DNA of 64,000 bases, taken from Verrucomicrobiota bacterium. Its GTDB lineage: Bacteria; Verrucomicrobiota; Kiritimatiellia; CAIQIC01. Under the pieces are notes generated by a model. It saw only the letters and a program-made list of their open reading frames with translations. It did no database searches and had not been told where the DNA came from. The position numbers and the translations under genes were made by a program. Each line of letters begins with the position of its first letter. The first letter of the stretch is position 1. The DNA is taken from assembly GCA_004321905.1 (NCBI GenBank), contig SCQF01000006.1, positions 25,410 through 89,409 of the forward strand. The letters run 5' to 3'. Of this stretch, positions 3,444 through 39,176 are shown piece by piece.

Positions 3444-4265
3444 TCACGCGGGCTTCGGCGCGCCGTTGGTCAGTTTGAGCGCGAGACATTCGTAGAGGAC
3501 GCGGTCGGGGGCGTAGGCAATGGTGTGGCGCGTGAGCACGCGATAGCCGACAGCATCGGCCTGGCTTTGCCGGGCGAGTTGCGTGGGCAAGTCGGCGGCG
3601 GTTTCCAACGCCATGACCAATTCGCGATCCTGCGCAAGGATCAATGGCGACTTGCCGGGCACCATGAGAACGGAAAGCGGCATAATCTGTGCCGGCCAGG
3701 CGACGCCGGCAATCGGCGCGGTGGGCACGGCGGCGACGGCGGCCTGCTTGGCTTCGATGCGCACCATGCGCGCACGCGCTTCGGGCGTATCGGTTTCGAG
3801 CGCGGCGGAAATCACGTCGAGCAGGCGGATGCGGACTTCGTTGAGGTCTTTGGCTTGCTCGATTTGCGGCAAGCCGCCGGCTTTGCCGATCACGCGGGCG
3901 AGTGCGGAGATTTCCTTGAGGTAGGCGTTCTTCTGCGCATCAGGGATGTAATACATCACGACGAGACGAACGGGTAGATTGTCGGGCGCGCCGTAGTCAA
4001 TGCCGGTGGGACTCCAGCCAACGGCACAGAGGAGCTCGCCTTCGGCGGCGGTGCGCGCATGCGGACAGGCCCAGCCCATCCCGAGCGCGGTGTTCGCGGC
4101 GCGCTCGCGCGCGAGCACGGACTCGACCACCTGCGTGCCGGCCTTGAGGCCAGGGATGGCTTCGATCAGGCTGCCAAGAATTTGCAGCGCCTTGTCCTTA
4201 TTATTCTCCGGCAGTTCGATCAACCGGCCTTCTTCCAGCGCAGACAACAGGGTCTTCATGGTCAA
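3444..4265 (-). CDS. PTS EIIA type-2 (PtsN-like) domain protein with C-terminal extension
   Basis: The N-terminal ~150 aa has an EIIA-2-like layout with a GMGWACPHAR active-site-like His. The C-terminal ~120 aa is unassigned. Confidence 0.5.
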   Translation of the reverse strand: MTMKTLLSALEEGRLIELPENNKDKALQILGSLIEAIPGLKAGTQVVESVLARERAANTALGMGWACPHARTAAEGELLCAVGWSPTGIDYGAPDNLPVRLVVMYYIPDAQKNAYLKEISALARVIGKAGGLPQIEQAKDLNEVRIRLLDVISAALETDTPEARARMVRIEAKQAAVAAVPTAPIAGVAWPAQIMPLSVLMVPGKSPLILAQDRELVMALETAADLPTQLARQSQADAVGYRVLTRHTIAYAPDRVLYECLALKLTNGAPKPA

Positions 4266-7269: not shown

Positions 7270-7345
7270 TGGCGCCCCTAACCGGATTCGAACCGATGTT
7301 CCCAGGATGAGAACCTGGTGTCCTAGGCCTCTAGACGATAAGGGC
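7270..7345 (-). tRNA. tRNA-Glu (anticodon CUC)
   Basis: Minus-strand sequence GCCCTTATCGTCTAGAGGCCTAGGACACCAGGTTCTCATCCTGGGAACATCGGTTCGAATCCGGTTAGGGGCGCCA folds as a cloverleaf. Acceptor stem GCCCTTA/TAGGGGC, anticodon stem CCAGG/CCTGG, loop TTCTCAT, T-loop GGTTCGAATCC, encoded CCA. Confidence 0.75.
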
Positions 7346-31070: not shown

Positions 31071-32642
31071 TCAGTGTGCGTATTCCACAAAACGCGTCTC
31101 GCGCACCACGACGACGCGAATTTGCCCTGGATATTTCAGTTCGTACTCGATTTGACGGGTTAGTTCGCGGGCCAGCTTGAGCGCGGCAGCATCGTCCACC
31201 ATGCGCGGCTCAACAAACACGCGGATTTCTCGGCCCGCTTGAAAGGCAAAGGCTTTTTCCACGCCGGGTTGACGCATGGCCAGCGCTTCCAATTCCGCCA
31301 AACGTTGAATAAACAACTCGGTATTCTCCGCGCGTGCCCCAGGCCGGGCCGCCGTGATGGCGTCCGCCGCGCTGGCCAGCGCCGAATAGAGATTGTCGCC
31401 CTCGGTTTCGTGGTGATGCGCCGCGACCGCGCTATAGACCACCGCGGCTTCGCCATGCCGTTTGAGAAAATCCGCACCAATGACCGCATGATTACCTTCG
31501 ACTTCATGATCGAGCGCCTTGCCAATATCGTGAAACAATCCGACGCGTTTGGCGAGGGCCGGATCAAGCCCGAGATCGGGGGCCATCAACCCCATCAGGC
31601 GCGCGGTTTCTACGGAATGTGCGAGCACATTTTGAGCGTAGCTCTGCCGAAATTTCAGACGCCCGAGTAGCCGCGTGATTTCTGGCACAACAGGCTGAAG
31701 CCCCAGCTCCGTCACAGCCTGTTCAGCGGCCTTTAGCATGATGTCGTCGAGTTCCGTTCGGACTTTGGTGGATATTTCCTCGATACGCGCAGGTTGAATG
31801 CGCCCGTCGGCAACCAGTTGCTCCAGCGTCTGCCGCGCCACTTCGCGCCGGATCGGATCGAAACTCGAAACCTGCACCACGCCCGGCGTGTCATCAATAA
31901 TGATTTGCACGCCGCACACCTGCTCGATGGTGCGGATATTGCGCCCCTCACGCCCAATGATGCGTCCTTTCATTTCCTCGCCCGGCAGGGTGACGCTACA
32001 CACCGCCGCCTCGTTCACCACCGGCGCGGCATAGCGCTCAATCGCCTGCAAAATGATCGTCCGCGCCTCAGCGACGGCCGTCGCGTGAGCTTCCTGCTGA
32101 CTGCGACGAATGATCTGGTTGGTTTCGCCACGCAGTTCTTCTTCCATCTGCTGCAGCAACAGACGCCGTGCTTCCTCGCGGGGCAACGTCGCCCGTTCCT
32201 CCAATCTGGTCTGAAGGGCAGCGTTCAACTTTTGCGCCTCTACCTCCGCGTTTTTTAACGCCGACTGCTGTTGCTCCACGTTGTCCATTTTCTCATCAAG
32301 CGTCTGTTCCTTCCGATCCACCACCCCCACGCGCCGGTCGAGGTTGATCTCGCGCTGCATCAAGCGTTCTTCCGTCACCGCGATTTCCTTCCGGCGGGTC
32401 TGCATCTCGTGCTCAAACACCTCGCGGGCCTTCATGATTTCATTGCGCGCCAGAATTTCGGCTTCGCGCGCCACGTTGCCGGCGTCACGCTGTGCTTGCT
32501 CCTGGATAACCTTCGCTTGATGTACCGCCGCGCTACCGCGCGCCCGGTCATAGATCATGTGGAGTAGCACGCCGAACAGGATCCCGACGAAAGCGATGCC
32601 GGCCGGCACCCACCAGATAACGTCCACAACCAGATTTTGCAT
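31071..32642 (-). CDS. rny: ribonuclease Y
   Basis: 523 aa with an N-terminal TM helix, coiled coil, KH domain (GRIIGREGRNIRTIEQVCGV) and HD domain (HSVETARLMG...LFHDIGKA). Confidence 0.85.
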   Translation of the reverse strand: MQNLVVDVIWWVPAGIAFVGILFGVLLHMIYDRARGSAAVHQAKVIQEQAQRDAGNVAREAEILARNEIMKAREVFEHEMQTRRKEIAVTEERLMQREINLDRRVGVVDRKEQTLDEKMDNVEQQQSALKNAEVEAQKLNAALQTRLEERATLPREEARRLLLQQMEEELRGETNQIIRRSQQEAHATAVAEARTIILQAIERYAAPVVNEAAVCSVTLPGEEMKGRIIGREGRNIRTIEQVCGVQIIIDDTPGVVQVSSFDPIRREVARQTLEQLVADGRIQPARIEEISTKVRTELDDIMLKAAEQAVTELGLQPVVPEITRLLGRLKFRQSYAQNVLAHSVETARLMGLMAPDLGLDPALAKRVGLFHDIGKALDHEVEGNHAVIGADFLKRHGEAAVVYSAVAAHHHETEGDNLYSALASAADAITAARPGARAENTELFIQRLAELEALAMRQPGVEKAFAFQAGREIRVFVEPRMVDDAAALKLARELTRQIEYELKYPGQIRVVVVRETRFVEYAH

Positions 32643-32792: not shown

Positions 32793-33398
32793 TCATGCGC
32801 GGAGATAAATTTCTTTTTCCGTCACCACGGCATCCATCAGCACATCGTGGGCTGCCACCGGCACGCGCGCCACAATCTGTACCGCAAAACCCAAGCCGAT
32901 TTTATAGGCAGCGAGACTTTCCAGCAAACGATCCAGCCACCCGCGACCGTGGCCGAGCCGGTGGCCCTTCGCATCAAACGCCAAGCCCGGAACCAGCGCC
33001 ACGTCCACGGTTTCCGGTTGTGCAACCCAGACCGGCTCGGCCGGTTCTGGAATCTGCAAACGGCCGGCCGCCAATATATCGTTGGCCGTCAGCCAGGCCA
33101 GCCGATAGCAGCCCGCGCGGTTGTCGAAGGCCGGCACGCACACCCGCTGGCCCAGCCGGTGGCAAGCGGTCAGGATCGGCGCGGTCTGCACTTCGCCCGG
33201 CAACGCCAGATAGAGCGCGATCACTTTTGCGCGGCGGAATTTTTCCAAGCCTTGGACGCGCTCCGCGATTTGCGCGCTCCACACCGCCACGTCGTCCAAA
33301 TTCAGTTGGGCACGAAGCGCGCGTGCCTCCGCCCGGACGGTCTTTTTTAACTGCTCTGTTCGGTTTGTTTTCGTGGTGTTTTCCTTAATGACTCCCAA
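32793..33398 (-). CDS. 5-formyltetrahydrofolate cyclo-ligase
   Basis: 201 aa, MTHFS-like (KVIALYLALPGEVQT, VPGLAFDAKGHRLGHGRGWLDR). Confidence 0.65.
   Translation of the reverse strand: MGVIKENTTKTNRTEQLKKTVRAEARALRAQLNLDDVAVWSAQIAERVQGLEKFRRAKVIALYLALPGEVQTAPILTACHRLGQRVCVPAFDNRAGCYRLAWLTANDILAAGRLQIPEPAEPVWVAQPETVDVALVPGLAFDAKGHRLGHGRGWLDRLLESLAAYKIGLGFAVQIVARVPVAAHDVLMDAVVTEKEIYLRA
33238..33257. repeat. single palindromic half-element inside MTHFS CDS
   Basis: AATTTTTCCAAGCCTTGGAC. In frame, where it encodes VQGLEKF. Confidence 0.6.
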
Positions 33399-34678
33399 TG
33401 TGCCATACGCTTGGCGATGGTGTCTTCGTAGCCTTGATCGGTCGGCACGTAATAGACTTTGCTCGTCGGCACATATTCTTGGTCCACAAAATGGCCTGCG
33501 CCATTGTGGGCATATGTGTAACCGGTATGACCGAAGGCCTTGGCCGCCTTCTTCGAGCCGGTGCTGCGCAGCGGACGCGGCACCGGCAGCACGCGGCCTT
33601 CCTTGACATCGCTCATCGCGGCATCAATCGCAAGATAGGACGCGTTGCTCTTCGGCGCGGTCGCCAGATAGGTCGTCGCCTGCGCGAGGATGATGCGCGC
33701 CTCCGGCATGCCGACGAACTCGACACCCGCGAGCGCGCTCGTCGCCACGGTCAGCGCGCGCGGATCGGCATTGCCAATATCCTCGCTCGCCAAGATGATC
33801 AGGCGGCGTGCGACGAAACGCGGGTCCTCGCCCGCGTAGAGCATTTTCGCCAGCCAGTAAACCGCCGCATGCGGATCGCTACCGCGGACACTCTTGATGA
33901 ACGCGGAAATCGTGTCGTAGTGACCATCCTCGTCGTGGTCATAGACAACGGCTTTTTTCTGAATGGATTCTTCGGTCACGGCGCGCGTCAGATGGATGAC
34001 GCCATCCGCGCCCGGCGGCGTGGTCAACGCGGCGATTTCCAAGGCGTTGAGCGCGCGGCGCGCGTCGCCCTCGCAAACGCGGGCGAGATGTTCGAGCGCA
34101 TCACGGTCGGCCCGCACCTTCAGCGCGCCAAGTCCCTCCGTGCTGGTCGTGGCGCGCTCCAGCAACGTGACCACCGCGGCCTCGTTCAATGGTTCGAGTT
34201 CAAAAATTTGCGAACGGGAAGTCAACGGGCTGTTGATGAAAAAAAACGGATTGTGTGTCGTCGCGCCGATCAACGTACAGGCCCCTTCTTCAAGATAAGG
34301 CAACAGCACGTCTTGCTGCGACTTATTGAAGCGGTGGATTTCGTCAATAAAAAGGATCGTCTCGCGGCCGCGGTGCGCTTTTTCCACCTGCGCTTTTTTC
34401 AGCAAATCGCGCAACACCTCGACGCCGGCGAGCACGCCGCTGGTGCGCTCAAAGATGCGGTGCGTGACGTTGGCGATGACCTCGGCCAGCGAGGTCTTAC
34501 CGCAGCCCGGCGGACCATAAAGGATGACGCTGCCGAGCCGGTCAGCTTCGATCGCGCGCCGGAGCAATTTGCCGGGGCCAAGGATATGCTCCTGCCCGAC
34601 CACGTCCTCCAGCGTACGCGGACGCATCCGCGCCGCCAGCGGCTGTCGCCCACTTTTTTGTTCGCCGAACAACTCCAT
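33347..34678 (-). CDS. rarA: replication-associated recombination protein A (AAA+ ATPase)
   Basis: Walker A GPPGCGKTS, Walker B LFIDEIHRFNKSQQD, and the MgsA C-terminal domain. Confidence 0.85.
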   Translation of the reverse strand: MELFGEQKSGRQPLAARMRPRTLEDVVGQEHILGPGKLLRRAIEADRLGSVILYGPPGCGKTSLAEVIANVTHRIFERTSGVLAGVEVLRDLLKKAQVEKAHRGRETILFIDEIHRFNKSQQDVLLPYLEEGACTLIGATTHNPFFFINSPLTSRSQIFELEPLNEAAVVTLLERATTSTEGLGALKVRADRDALEHLARVCEGDARRALNALEIAALTTPPGADGVIHLTRAVTEESIQKKAVVYDHDEDGHYDTISAFIKSVRGSDPHAAVYWLAKMLYAGEDPRFVARRLIILASEDIGNADPRALTVATSALAGVEFVGMPEARIILAQATTYLATAPKSNASYLAIDAAMSDVKEGRVLPVPRPLRSTGSKKAAKAFGHTGYTYAHNGAGHFVDQEYVPTSKVYYVPTDQGYEDTIAKRMAHWESLRKTPRKQTEQSS

Positions 34679-34694
34679 CGCCTACTCCGCAAAG

Positions 34695-34905
34695 AAAAAA
34701 CCCCGCCTTGCCGTCAAGGGCATTGTCTTCTGAACCTCGAATATCGAGGTGGGTGCTCTACCGCTGGTTAAGGCAAGCAATGCAGCTTGCCGCCGCCACC
34801 GGATGCCGAGCTCCCAATGGAGTTAACCATGTAGGGTCAGAAGAATCGGCCCCGTCACGCACAAGGCAGGGTATCTTCGCCCAGAAGCCGCAACTTCAGG
34901 GAGAA
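34695..34905 (-). ncRNA. candidate structured ncRNA (possibly 6S/SsrS-like); identity unproven
   Basis: In the 490-bp non-coding gap between rarA and pheT, a ~36-nt imperfect long-range helix (34702-34737 with 34838-34875) encloses two perfect local hairpins (CCTCGAATATCGAGG and GGCAAGCAATGCAGCTTGCC). An MTHFS gene lies downstream on the same strand, the classic ssrS-ygfA linkage. Confidence 0.3.
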
Positions 34906-35140
34906 TCAAAGCCCCTCTGAAAAAGAACCACGGCCATAGGCCTCGCCCCAACGCTCCCGCAACCGGCGCTGACGCAACGCCCGCCGACCGGTGATGAACC
35001 GGCCCTCCGCTACGCACACGCGTGGATGCAAACCCCACGCCAGCACTGTCGCCAACAGGAACGCCAGCGGAACCATCATTTCAATCCATGTCATCAGCAT
35101 GGGACTTGTCTGCCTTGTAAATTTAACTTTTCCATACCGC

Positions 35141-35160
35141 CTTCCCACCCTTGGAAACCC
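35141..35160. repeat. degenerate palindromic element downstream of pheT
   Basis: CTTCCCACCCTTGGAAACCC. A weak match; only the TTGGAAA arm is intact. Confidence 0.3.
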
Positions 35161-35165
35161 TTGTT

Positions 35166-37577
35166 TCAACCTTCGCGGATTTCCACGCCCAGTTCCCGCT
35201 TCACGGCTTCCTTGACCCCCACATGATACCGGTTGGCGTCTTCATCTGTCAAGGTGCGATCCGCGGCGCGGTACGTGCAGGCGTAAGCCATGCTTTTCCG
35301 ACCCGCGCCCAAATTCCCACCATGGAATATATCGAATAATTCGACGTTTTCCAGTTCCGCCGGCGCGGCTTGGCGAACCACCCGCACCACATCTTCATGC
35401 TTGAGCGCATCGCTGGCGACCAGCGCCATGTCGCGGCGTATGGCAGGGAATTGCGCGATGGGCACCGCACGCGGCACGGCGAACACGTTCGCCAGTAACG
35501 GCGCGAGTTGCGCTTCGAGCACCGCCACCGGTGCGGTCAGCCGCCATTCACACGCAATACCGTGTTTGACGACGCCTAGCGCGCCAACTCCCACCCCATT
35601 CACCAACAACGCGACGGTGCAGCCCGGCTCGCCCCACGGCCGCTCCGCGACGCGGCATTCAGCTTTTTTCAATCCAAGCGCGACGGCGAGCGCTTCCCAG
35701 ACACCTTTGAGCCACAAGAAAATTTCATCGCTCTTGATCGGCAAATGCTTGTCGAGACCGGTACGACCAACCGGCCCCATCAGACCAATCGCCAAACGAT
35801 CCTCCTCGATCATCGCGCCGCTGGCGTCGAGCGCGAACACGCGACCGATTTCGAACAGCGCAGCCTCGGCGACCTGCCGCGCGTGGTTGCGACCCAGCGT
35901 CTCGACCATCTGCGGCACGAGCGAGTCGCGGAGGATCGCTTGATCGGCGCTGACCGGATTCGGAATCACCACACGGCGTGGCGCCGCCGCCGGATCGAAA
36001 AGATTGAGCAACCTCTCGGAAAGAAAACTATAGTTCAGCGTCTCGCGCAGGCCGAGACCGACAAGCGCACGCCGGCCCCATGCAATAGCTTGGGCCGGAC
36101 GATCATCCACGCCGGGCACGAGAATCGCGCGCGGCGCCGGCGCGGGGATTTGATCGAGGCCATGAATGCGCGCGACTTCTTCAACGAGGTCAATCTCACG
36201 CTCCAGATCGCGGCGAAACGTCGGTATACCCACCGCATACGCACCATTTTCCAAGCTTTGGACGGACATTTCCAAGCCTTGGAAAATCGCCCGAATCTGT
36301 TCGTCGGAAATTTCCAAACCCGTCCGGTCACGGATGTAATCGCCGCGACAATGCAACACGCGCGGCGGCGCCGGCTGGGCATAAAGATCGAGGACACCCG
36401 GCGCACACGTCGCACCGGCCAATTCCGTCATCAGCATCACGGCACGGCGGCTCGCCCAATCAACTGTGGCCGGGTTCACCCCGCGCTCAAACCGATAAGA
36501 CGATTCCGTGGAAAGGCCCAAGCTACGCGCCGTGGTGCGAACATCGGAGGGCTTGAACGCGGCACCCTCCAAGAGCACCGTCGTGGTCGCAGGGCGAATT
36601 TCGCTGTTGCCGCCACCCATCACACCAGCAACGGCGACCGCTTGCCGGGCATCGGCAATGACGAGCGTCGTTGGGTTCAATTCGCGTTCGACGCCATCAA
36701 GCGTTTTCATCTTCTCACCGGCGCGCGCACGACGAACAACAATCCGGCCTTCCGCGAGTAGCGTCTGATCGAACGCGTGCAGCGGGTGTCCGCACTCGAG
36801 CATGACGTAATTGGTGATATCCACGACGTTGTTGATCGCACGAATACCGGCGAGTTCCAGCCGCTTTTGCATCCACGTGGGCGATGCCCCCATCTTCACG
36901 CCATGCAGAATGCGTGCGGTGTAACGCGGACAGCCTTCGGCCTCTTCAACCACGACATGCGTCAACTCGGCCACCGGTTTGCCGGATTCGGCGAGCTTGA
37001 TCTCCGGTATGCGAAGTTTCGTGCCGTAGAGCGCGGCGACTTCGCGTGCGATGCCGATCAGACTCAAACAGTCGGGCCGATTCGGCGTCACTTCCAGTTC
37101 GAGTACGGTTTCCGGCGCGCCGAGGACTTCGGCAATCGGTGTGCCGGGGGCCCACTTGGCATCGAGTTCCAACAGGCCGGCATGATCCTTCGAGAGGCCG
37201 AGTTCGTCCGGCGCGCAAAGCATACCTTCGGAAAAAACACCGCGAATCTTGGCTTTTTTCAGTGTCAGCCCATTCGGCAGCGTCACGCCCGACGGCGCAA
37301 ACAGCGCCTTCAGGCCGACGCGCGCATTCGGCGCGCCGCACACCACCACGAGTTGGCCCGCGCCATGATTGACGGTGCACAGCGTCAGTTTGTCGGCGTT
37401 CGGATGACGCTCCACTTGGAGAATTTCGCCAACGACGATGCCCTTCGCATCGCAGCCGATGGTTTCGAGGTGCTCGACCTCCAAGCCGGAAAAGGTCAGC
37501 TTCGCCGCCAACCCTTGGGGCGTATCGGCAAAATCCACATAATCCTTCAGCCAACTGATCGGTACACGCATGTCCAT
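35166..37577 (-). CDS. pheT: phenylalanine--tRNA ligase beta subunit
   Basis: 803 aa with tRNA-binding OB, B3/B4, B5 and FDX-ACB domains (MDMRVPISWLKDYVD...). Two adjacent palindromic half-sites lie in frame at 36247-36288. Confidence 0.9.
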   Translation of the reverse strand: MDMRVPISWLKDYVDFADTPQGLAAKLTFSGLEVEHLETIGCDAKGIVVGEILQVERHPNADKLTLCTVNHGAGQLVVVCGAPNARVGLKALFAPSGVTLPNGLTLKKAKIRGVFSEGMLCAPDELGLSKDHAGLLELDAKWAPGTPIAEVLGAPETVLELEVTPNRPDCLSLIGIAREVAALYGTKLRIPEIKLAESGKPVAELTHVVVEEAEGCPRYTARILHGVKMGASPTWMQKRLELAGIRAINNVVDITNYVMLECGHPLHAFDQTLLAEGRIVVRRARAGEKMKTLDGVERELNPTTLVIADARQAVAVAGVMGGGNSEIRPATTTVLLEGAAFKPSDVRTTARSLGLSTESSYRFERGVNPATVDWASRRAVMLMTELAGATCAPGVLDLYAQPAPPRVLHCRGDYIRDRTGLEISDEQIRAIFQGLEMSVQSLENGAYAVGIPTFRRDLEREIDLVEEVARIHGLDQIPAPAPRAILVPGVDDRPAQAIAWGRRALVGLGLRETLNYSFLSERLLNLFDPAAAPRRVVIPNPVSADQAILRDSLVPQMVETLGRNHARQVAEAALFEIGRVFALDASGAMIEEDRLAIGLMGPVGRTGLDKHLPIKSDEIFLWLKGVWEALAVALGLKKAECRVAERPWGEPGCTVALLVNGVGVGALGVVKHGIACEWRLTAPVAVLEAQLAPLLANVFAVPRAVPIAQFPAIRRDMALVASDALKHEDVVRVVRQAAPAELENVELFDIFHGGNLGAGRKSMAYACTYRAADRTLTDEDANRYHVGVKEAVKRELGVEIREG
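36247..36288. repeat. two abutting palindromic half-elements inside pheT CDS
   Basis: TTTTCCAAGCTTTGGAC and ATTTCCAAGCCTTGGAAAATC with no spacer between them. In frame, where they encode FQGLEMSVQSLENG. Confidence 0.7.
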
Positions 37578-39100: not shown

Positions 39101-39123
39101 GGCACAGGGGACACCGCACAACA

Positions 39124-39156
39124 CAAAAAAAGCCCCGCACGATTGCGGGGCTTTTC
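39124..39156. terminator. bidirectional intrinsic terminator
   Basis: AAAAAAAGCCCCGCacgattGCGGGGCTTTT: a 7-bp GC stem flanked by an A-run and a T-run, between the convergent MATE and prepilin genes. Confidence 0.55.
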
Positions 39157-39176
39157 AAACCTAATTTATGACGAGA

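Follow-up and report, generated by a model that had tools for sequence, protein, structure and literature searches.

What kind of element occupies the gap between pheT and rarA on the minus strand of the window, by which we mean the whole stretch of 64,000 nucleotides that was analysed? A sequence-only reading of the locus had proposed a structured non-coding RNA, possibly 6S-like, co-oriented with rarA and the 5-formyltetrahydrofolate cyclo-ligase (MTHFS) gene. 6S RNA is a bacterial small RNA that mimics an open promoter and thereby restrains RNA polymerase. We searched the full window against the 4227 families of Rfam, applying their gathering thresholds, and obtained two matches, namely, one tRNA at 7273-7345 and one 6S/SsrS RNA. 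The latter (RF00013) covers 34875..34696 of the minus strand at model positions 1-187 of 187, with a score of 85.2 bits versus a gathering score of 46.4 (E 2e-15 over the 64 kb), and the same match has an E-value of 3.7e-17 in a permissive scan of positions 34300-35400. The SRP, tmRNA and RNase P models, which had been suggested for a cmsearch check together with 6S, gave no match at threshold anywhere in the 64 kb, and besides 6S no Rfam match in the permissive scan was better than E = 0.9. The 6S-like proposal is thus borne out over the full length of the model, and the orientation is as claimed, since the match lies on the minus strand and the neighbouring genes are all on that strand too. 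Neither of the outcomes named beforehand as contrary to the proposal, the lack of an Rfam match or a region that is only the 3' UTR or terminator of pheT, occurred.

We therefore regard 34875..34696 as almost certainly a 6S RNA (ssrS) gene, encoding an RNA of ~180 nt on the minus strand (Table 1). The basis for this identity is covariance-model family membership together with the fold, the covariation and a gene order that is conserved. We see in it a canonical, ordinary 6S RNA gene, already known in kind; a standard pipeline with an Rfam step would annotate it as such, and it matters little beyond correct annotation.

Table 1. The 6S RNA gene of the window, its parts and neighbouring genes, and co-oriented 6S genes beside rarA in other genomes
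Feature	Position	Strand	Basis
6S RNA (ssrS) gene, ~180 nt	34696..34875	-	Full-length Rfam RF00013 match and MFE fold
Closing stem, 5' strand (RNA positions 4-39)	34837..34872	-	MFE structure; helices 1-3 of the covariation count
Central bubble, 5' strand CCCUACAUGGUUAACUCCAUU	34816..34836	-	Rfam alignment; predicted pRNA template
Internal (terminal) stem GGGAGCUC.../...GAGCACCC	34751..34815	-	Rfam alignment, MFE fold
Variable apical hairpin on the internal stem	34772-34791	-	Rfam alignment, MFE fold
Small hairpin CCUCGAUAUUCGAGG in the 3' bubble strand, then conserved GGUUCA	34735..34749	-	Rfam alignment, MFE fold
Closing stem, 3' strand (RNA positions 143-176)	34700..34733	-	MFE structure; covariation count
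U-run directly after the closing stem	34695..34700	-	T-run in relatives; terminator-like scan
Sole sigma70-like match within ~400 nt upstream of 6S, TTGACA-18-TATCAT	35223..35252	-	Consensus match, 11/12
PheT	35166-37577	-	
RarA/MgsA gene	33347-34678	-	Pfam MgsA_C, AAA_assoc_2, RuvB_N
5-formyltetrahydrofolate cyclo-ligase (MTHFS; ygfA/fau equivalent)	32793-33398	-	Pfam 5-FTHF_cyc-lig, 131.6 bits
RNase Y (rny)	31071-32642	-	
6S directly upstream of rarA, co-oriented: L002 (Victivallales); L004 (Kiritimatiellae); L008, L009, L019 (Omnitrophota); L013 (Planctomycetia)			Rfam, gathering level
6S directly upstream of rarA, co-oriented: L075 (Bacillota MAG); L078 (Leptospirillia); L039			Rfam, gathering level

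Secondary structure and covariation

The minus-strand RNA has a minimum free energy (MFE) of -91.1 kcal/mol versus -60.8 +/- 4.5 kcal/mol for 200 dinucleotide shuffles (z = -6.73), none of which folded as well. The plus strand folds well too (z = -5.76), as is expected for a set of helices, and its fold is 7.5 kcal/mol worse than that of the minus strand because the G-U pairs U8-G172, U15-G165 and G23-U159 become A-C mismatches. The centroid structure does not differ from the MFE structure, and both consist of a closing stem, a large single-stranded central bubble and an internal (terminal) stem. This is the layout of the canonical 6S rod of about 180-200 nt, here with one hairpin within the 3' bubble strand and another at the apex of the internal stem, and the Rfam alignment and the MFE fold concur on it. 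The closing stem comprises 29 base pairs in blocks of 12+3+1+5+8. The long-range helix that the sequence-only reading had drawn between 34702-34737 and 34838-34875 is present in this fold with its ends within 2-4 nt, as are both of its local hairpins, CCTCGAATATCGAGG at 34735-34749 and GGCAAGCAATGCAGCTTGCC at 34772-34791. Closure of the bubble by G-C pairs on both sides is a feature of 6S RNAs (PMC4064990). In the MFE fold, the bubble is closed by C36-G146 and G38-C144 on the side of the closing stem, and by G61-G63 with C123-C125 on that of the internal stem. Two mechanical open reading frames (ORFs) overlap the stretch, at 34708-34920 on the plus strand and 34823-35038 on the minus strand, with no Pfam match in either.

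Twelve 6S genes that pass the Rfam threshold were found beside rarA in other genomes, belonging to Victivallales, Kiritimatiellae, Omnitrophota, Planctomycetia, Leptospirillia and Bacillota, and ten of them lie on the rarA strand at most ~210 nt upstream of rarA. The Rfam-identified 6S gene is located about 2 kb upstream of rarA in locus L041, and downstream of rarA and convergent to it in Fictibacillus (L065). A covariance model, R1, built from seven of the related 6S sequences recovers all the 6S genes found by Rfam and adds one in L028; it scores 139 bits on the minus strand of the window versus 12.7 bits on the plus strand.

Around bulges, the MAFFT and R1 alignments misplace the 3' strand of the closing stem, so that RNAalifold recovered only 23-25 pairs from them. 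We therefore mapped the structure to be counted, with 46 pairs, from the MFE fold of the window onto the 13-sequence alignment derived from R1. As this structure comes from the window sequence and the alignment from the related-sequence model, the counts lean towards the structure, and it is the Rfam score that constitutes the independent evidence. Read with this leaning, standard pairs occupy 76.2% of cells versus 40-52% with the 3' partners displaced by 1-3 columns, both sides change in 28 of the 46 pairs (13-19 with displaced partners), and the covariation score is 0.329 versus 0.10-0.17, a value that none of 500 shuffles reached; for four of the five covariation measures, no shuffle out of 500 matched the observed value. 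The covariation analysis across relatives that had been suggested earlier hence supports the helices, which are kept by compensatory change in the 13 sequences, although neither the alignment nor the structure is independent of the window. The best supported elements are the internal stem (helices 4 and 5, 97% and 77% of cells paired), the hairpin in the 3' bubble strand (helix 6, 86% of cells paired, both sides changing in five of six pairs) and the helix next to the bubble. Only 44% of cells are paired in helix 2, the middle of the closing stem, where bulges are probably misaligned since the alignment had been fitted to a 23-pair model. Among the bubble-closing pairs, GGG/CCC are G-C in 11-13 of the 13 sequences, the equivalent of G38-C144 is kept in 10 of the 13, and the equivalent of C36-G146 is U-A in most relatives.

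Gene order and comparison with known 6S loci

The minus-strand gene order in the window is pheT, 6S, rarA, MTHFS and RNase Y, with the 6S gene beginning 290 nt past the pheT stop codon. The 6S gene thus has typical neighbours, 6S-rarA-MTHFS on one strand, which is a supporting rather than a defining argument for its identity. The MTHFS ORF, with its listed TTG start, overlaps the 3' end of rarA by 52 nt (33347-33398); since its Pfam match starts at residue 18, the true start may be further downstream, and the two genes are tightly packed whichever start holds. The RarA protein of the window is 69% identical to that of a Victivallales MAG and 66% to that of Kiritimatiellae, with Lentisphaeraceae in the 66-69% range, and its more distant relatives occur in Omnitrophota, Verrucomicrobia and Planctomycetia. 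The window is therefore DNA of an uncultured PVC-group bacterium.

A tblastn search with the window proteins showed that the order pheT-6S-rarA-MTHFS-rny recurs in L002, and also in L009 and L028, where an additional gene separates rarA from MTHFS. What is mildly new about the locus is only that this order is common to the window, one Victivallales MAG and two Omnitrophota MAGs; the 6S-rarA pair occurs in Kiritimatiellae and Planctomycetia as well, and the added value is modest and comparative. Our literature search found nothing specific on 6S RNA in Planctomycetes or Verrucomicrobia. Many other rarA loci lack a 6S gene within 4 kb, among them the loci of Lachnospiraceae-type, Clostridia and Tissierellia (L023, L026, L030, L032, L033, L035-L038, L044 and L047) and the PVC loci L003, L006, L007, L010, L014-L017 and L020. 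The linkage of 6S and rarA is therefore frequent, not universal. One of these loci, L014 of Omnitrophota, has the same pheT-rarA...MTHFS-rny order with a pheT-rarA gap of only ~33 nt (3967-4001) and no 6S match. 6S is thus lost from, or moved out of, the position between pheT and rarA in some relatives such as L014.

6S RNA of Escherichia coli (ssrS, b2911; zapA-ssrS-fau(ygfA) locus) belongs to the same Rfam family and has the same architecture as the window RNA, with a length of 183 nt versus ~180 nt. Both carry CUGA(G/C)CC at the junction of closing stem and bubble and CACCU-hairpin-GGUUCA in the 3' bubble strand, and the E. coli gene (NC_000913) aligns with the window RNA through CUGAGCCGAU / CUGACCCUAC and CACCU..GGUUCA. 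The NC_000913 annotation places ssrS between zapA and fau/ygfA, and the 6S genes of both genomes are co-oriented upstream of a 5-formyltetrahydrofolate cyclo-ligase gene. However, rarA is inserted between the two genes in the window, and the upstream neighbour is pheT instead of zapA. The classical link of 6S to ygfA/MTHFS, which the sequence-only reading had named, is found in the E. coli annotation, and the ssrS-ygfA linkage has been called conserved (PMC4064990).

Firmicute 6S RNAs (of Lactobacillales, and 6S-1/bsrA of Bacillus subtilis) and the window 6S RNA both neighbour rarA and both carry a 3'-terminal U-run or terminator. The rarA-6S neighbourhood is conserved in Lactobacillales, where rarA precedes 6S and the latter is considered monocistronic, and for B. 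subtilis 6S-1, to which rarA has the opposite orientation (PMC8414754). The Fictibacillus locus has this Bacillus-type arrangement. In contrast, in the window and in the loci of PVC, Omnitrophota, Planctomycetia, Leptospirillia and the Bacillota MAG L075, the 6S gene immediately precedes a co-oriented rarA, and MTHFS and rny come next. The locus therefore joins two published linkages, the γ-proteobacterial ssrS-ygfA and the Firmicute rarA-6S, and the presence of both partners downstream of 6S on one strand is slightly unusual. The shared order hints at a common origin of the two linkages, and these lineages may express 6S, RarA and MTHFS together.

Predicted transcription and function of the locus

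We found no sigma70-like promoter directly before the 5' end of 6S in the window. A candidate for a distal 6S promoter is the strong TTGACA-18-TATCAT match, which sits ~340 nt ahead of 6S within the final pheT codons. E. coli ssrS has a distal promoter, P2, and since the best candidate in the window is distal, 5' processing would be required. Given the lack of a proximal promoter and the distal match, the window RNA, like E. coli 6S, probably arises by processing of a longer precursor. Clear -35 and -10 boxes are located immediately upstream of 6S in the more distant relatives L008, L013, L019 and L065. In the Kiritimatiellae locus L004, TTGACA-17-TATCTT with an upstream TG just past the pheT stop codon is a candidate distal 6S promoter. 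We also considered a sigma54-type reading of the motif TGGTTCTTT, common to the window and L002, and rejected it, as by eye the GG-GC spacing does not fit.

At the 3' end of 6S, the terminator-like scan flags CCTTGACGGCAAGG + CGGGGTTTTT, and 12 of the 13 aligned sequences carry a T-run where the closing stem ends or close to that point; the U-run is a probable 3' end or partial terminator. By comparison, the primary ssrS-ygfA transcript of E. coli ends by Rho-dependent termination inside ygfA (PMC3299989). The GGAG ribosome-binding site of rarA is located at 34685-34688 and its ATG lies 17 nt past the U-run at the 6S 3' end, with no promoter-like site for rarA between 6S and rarA. In L004, the rarA ATG follows immediately after the T-run (3995-4003), and any ribosome-binding sequence would therefore fall inside the 6S closing stem. 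With these start signals so close behind 6S in the window and L004, read-through is the simplest expression route for rarA and MTHFS, and rarA is probably co-transcribed with 6S.

The short distance from the U-run to the rarA start codon in the window and in L004, together with the missing rarA promoter, would also fit a structure that serves the rarA-MTHFS operon solely in cis, as a 5' leader or attenuator controlling read-through at the U-run with no trans-acting RNA accumulating. We consider this very unlikely, as the sequence matches the 6S model from end to end with almost double the gathering score, and as the same RNA has a convergent orientation relative to rarA in Fictibacillus and a distance of 2 kb from it in L041, and therefore need not be a rarA leader. 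Moreover, E. coli 6S is cut from the 5' part of the ssrS-ygfA transcript (PMC3299989), and a leader position is therefore compatible with 6S function. Still more improbable, to the point of being negligible, is that the region amounts to no more than the pheT 3' UTR or terminator, or to an inverted repeat that is mobile or due to chance. Its position downstream of pheT on the same strand and the stable plus-strand fold would suit such a reading, but the region starts well beyond the pheT stop codon, reaches 85 bits on a curated covariance model and is conserved with compensatory changes across several phyla, and R1 finds only one other match in the window, a terminator hairpin at 39123-39159. 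We rejected the latter match, of 26 bits, as a second 6S gene; it is an ordinary intrinsic terminator hairpin of 37 nt on the minus strand (AAAGCCCCGCAATCGTGCGGGGCTTTTTTT), which R1 picks up because it resembles the closing stem followed by the U-run.

For the 6S RNA, sequestration of polymerase and its release by pRNA synthesis, the standard 6S mechanism, are predicted here by analogy with 6S of E. coli and B. subtilis. The RNA would be processed from a longer transcript, which may start within pheT, at the distal promoter-like site, and read-through at the U-run would continue into rarA-MTHFS. The central bubble between the G-C-closed helices would imitate the melted DNA of an open promoter, and 6S would lodge in the active-site channel of the RNA polymerase that carries the housekeeping sigma factor, damping transcription as growth slows. 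Upon a nutrient upshift, the polymerase would copy the 5' bubble strand as a template into a short pRNA, which would unzip the closing stem and release the polymerase. The pRNA start site of E. coli is U44 (PMC3299989), which aligns with C45 of the window RNA (window position 34831). Synthesis is thus predicted to start opposite C45 with the pRNA 5'-GUAGGGUCAGAAGAAUCGG-3'; its beginning, GUAGGGUCAG, is purine-initiated and has GG at positions 4/5, fitting the pattern described for other 6S RNAs. The predicted pRNA would start with G, whereas that of E. coli starts with A opposite U44, and a pRNA with an initial G is also predicted from the CCAACA-type bubble start that most relatives have, a likeness to Firmicute 6S.

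As a tentative and rather speculative proposal, the pheT-6S-rarA-MTHFS-rny order of PVC and Omnitrophota may be ancestral to both ssrS-ygfA of γ-proteobacteria and rarA-6S of Firmicutes. 6S would then be cut from the 5' end of the rarA-MTHFS mRNA, and the closing stem and U-run, together a leaky terminator, would set the output of RarA, a replication-fork rescue ATPase, and of the folate enzyme relative to 6S; in L004, the stem would also bury the ribosome-binding region of rarA.

An ORF of 64 amino acids (MLMTWIEMMVPLAFLLATVLAWGL...) lies between pheT and 6S at 34906-35100 on the minus strand, with one hydrophobic helix and an Arg-rich tail ending in YGRGSFSEGL. It is called as a gene in an identical Logan contig (SRR8426592), which is also its sole tblastn match, and it has no Pfam match. 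An ORF at the same position in L002 (3553-3840), which runs into the L002 6S gene, is weakly similar to it (BLASTP E = 0.023, shared GRF..RR..YG.GSF). The 64-residue ORF may encode a small lineage-specific membrane protein, or may be a non-coding leader of the 6S precursor. Elsewhere in the window, a tRNA-Glu gene (anticodon CUC) was found by both Rfam and ARAGORN at 7270-7345 on the minus strand.
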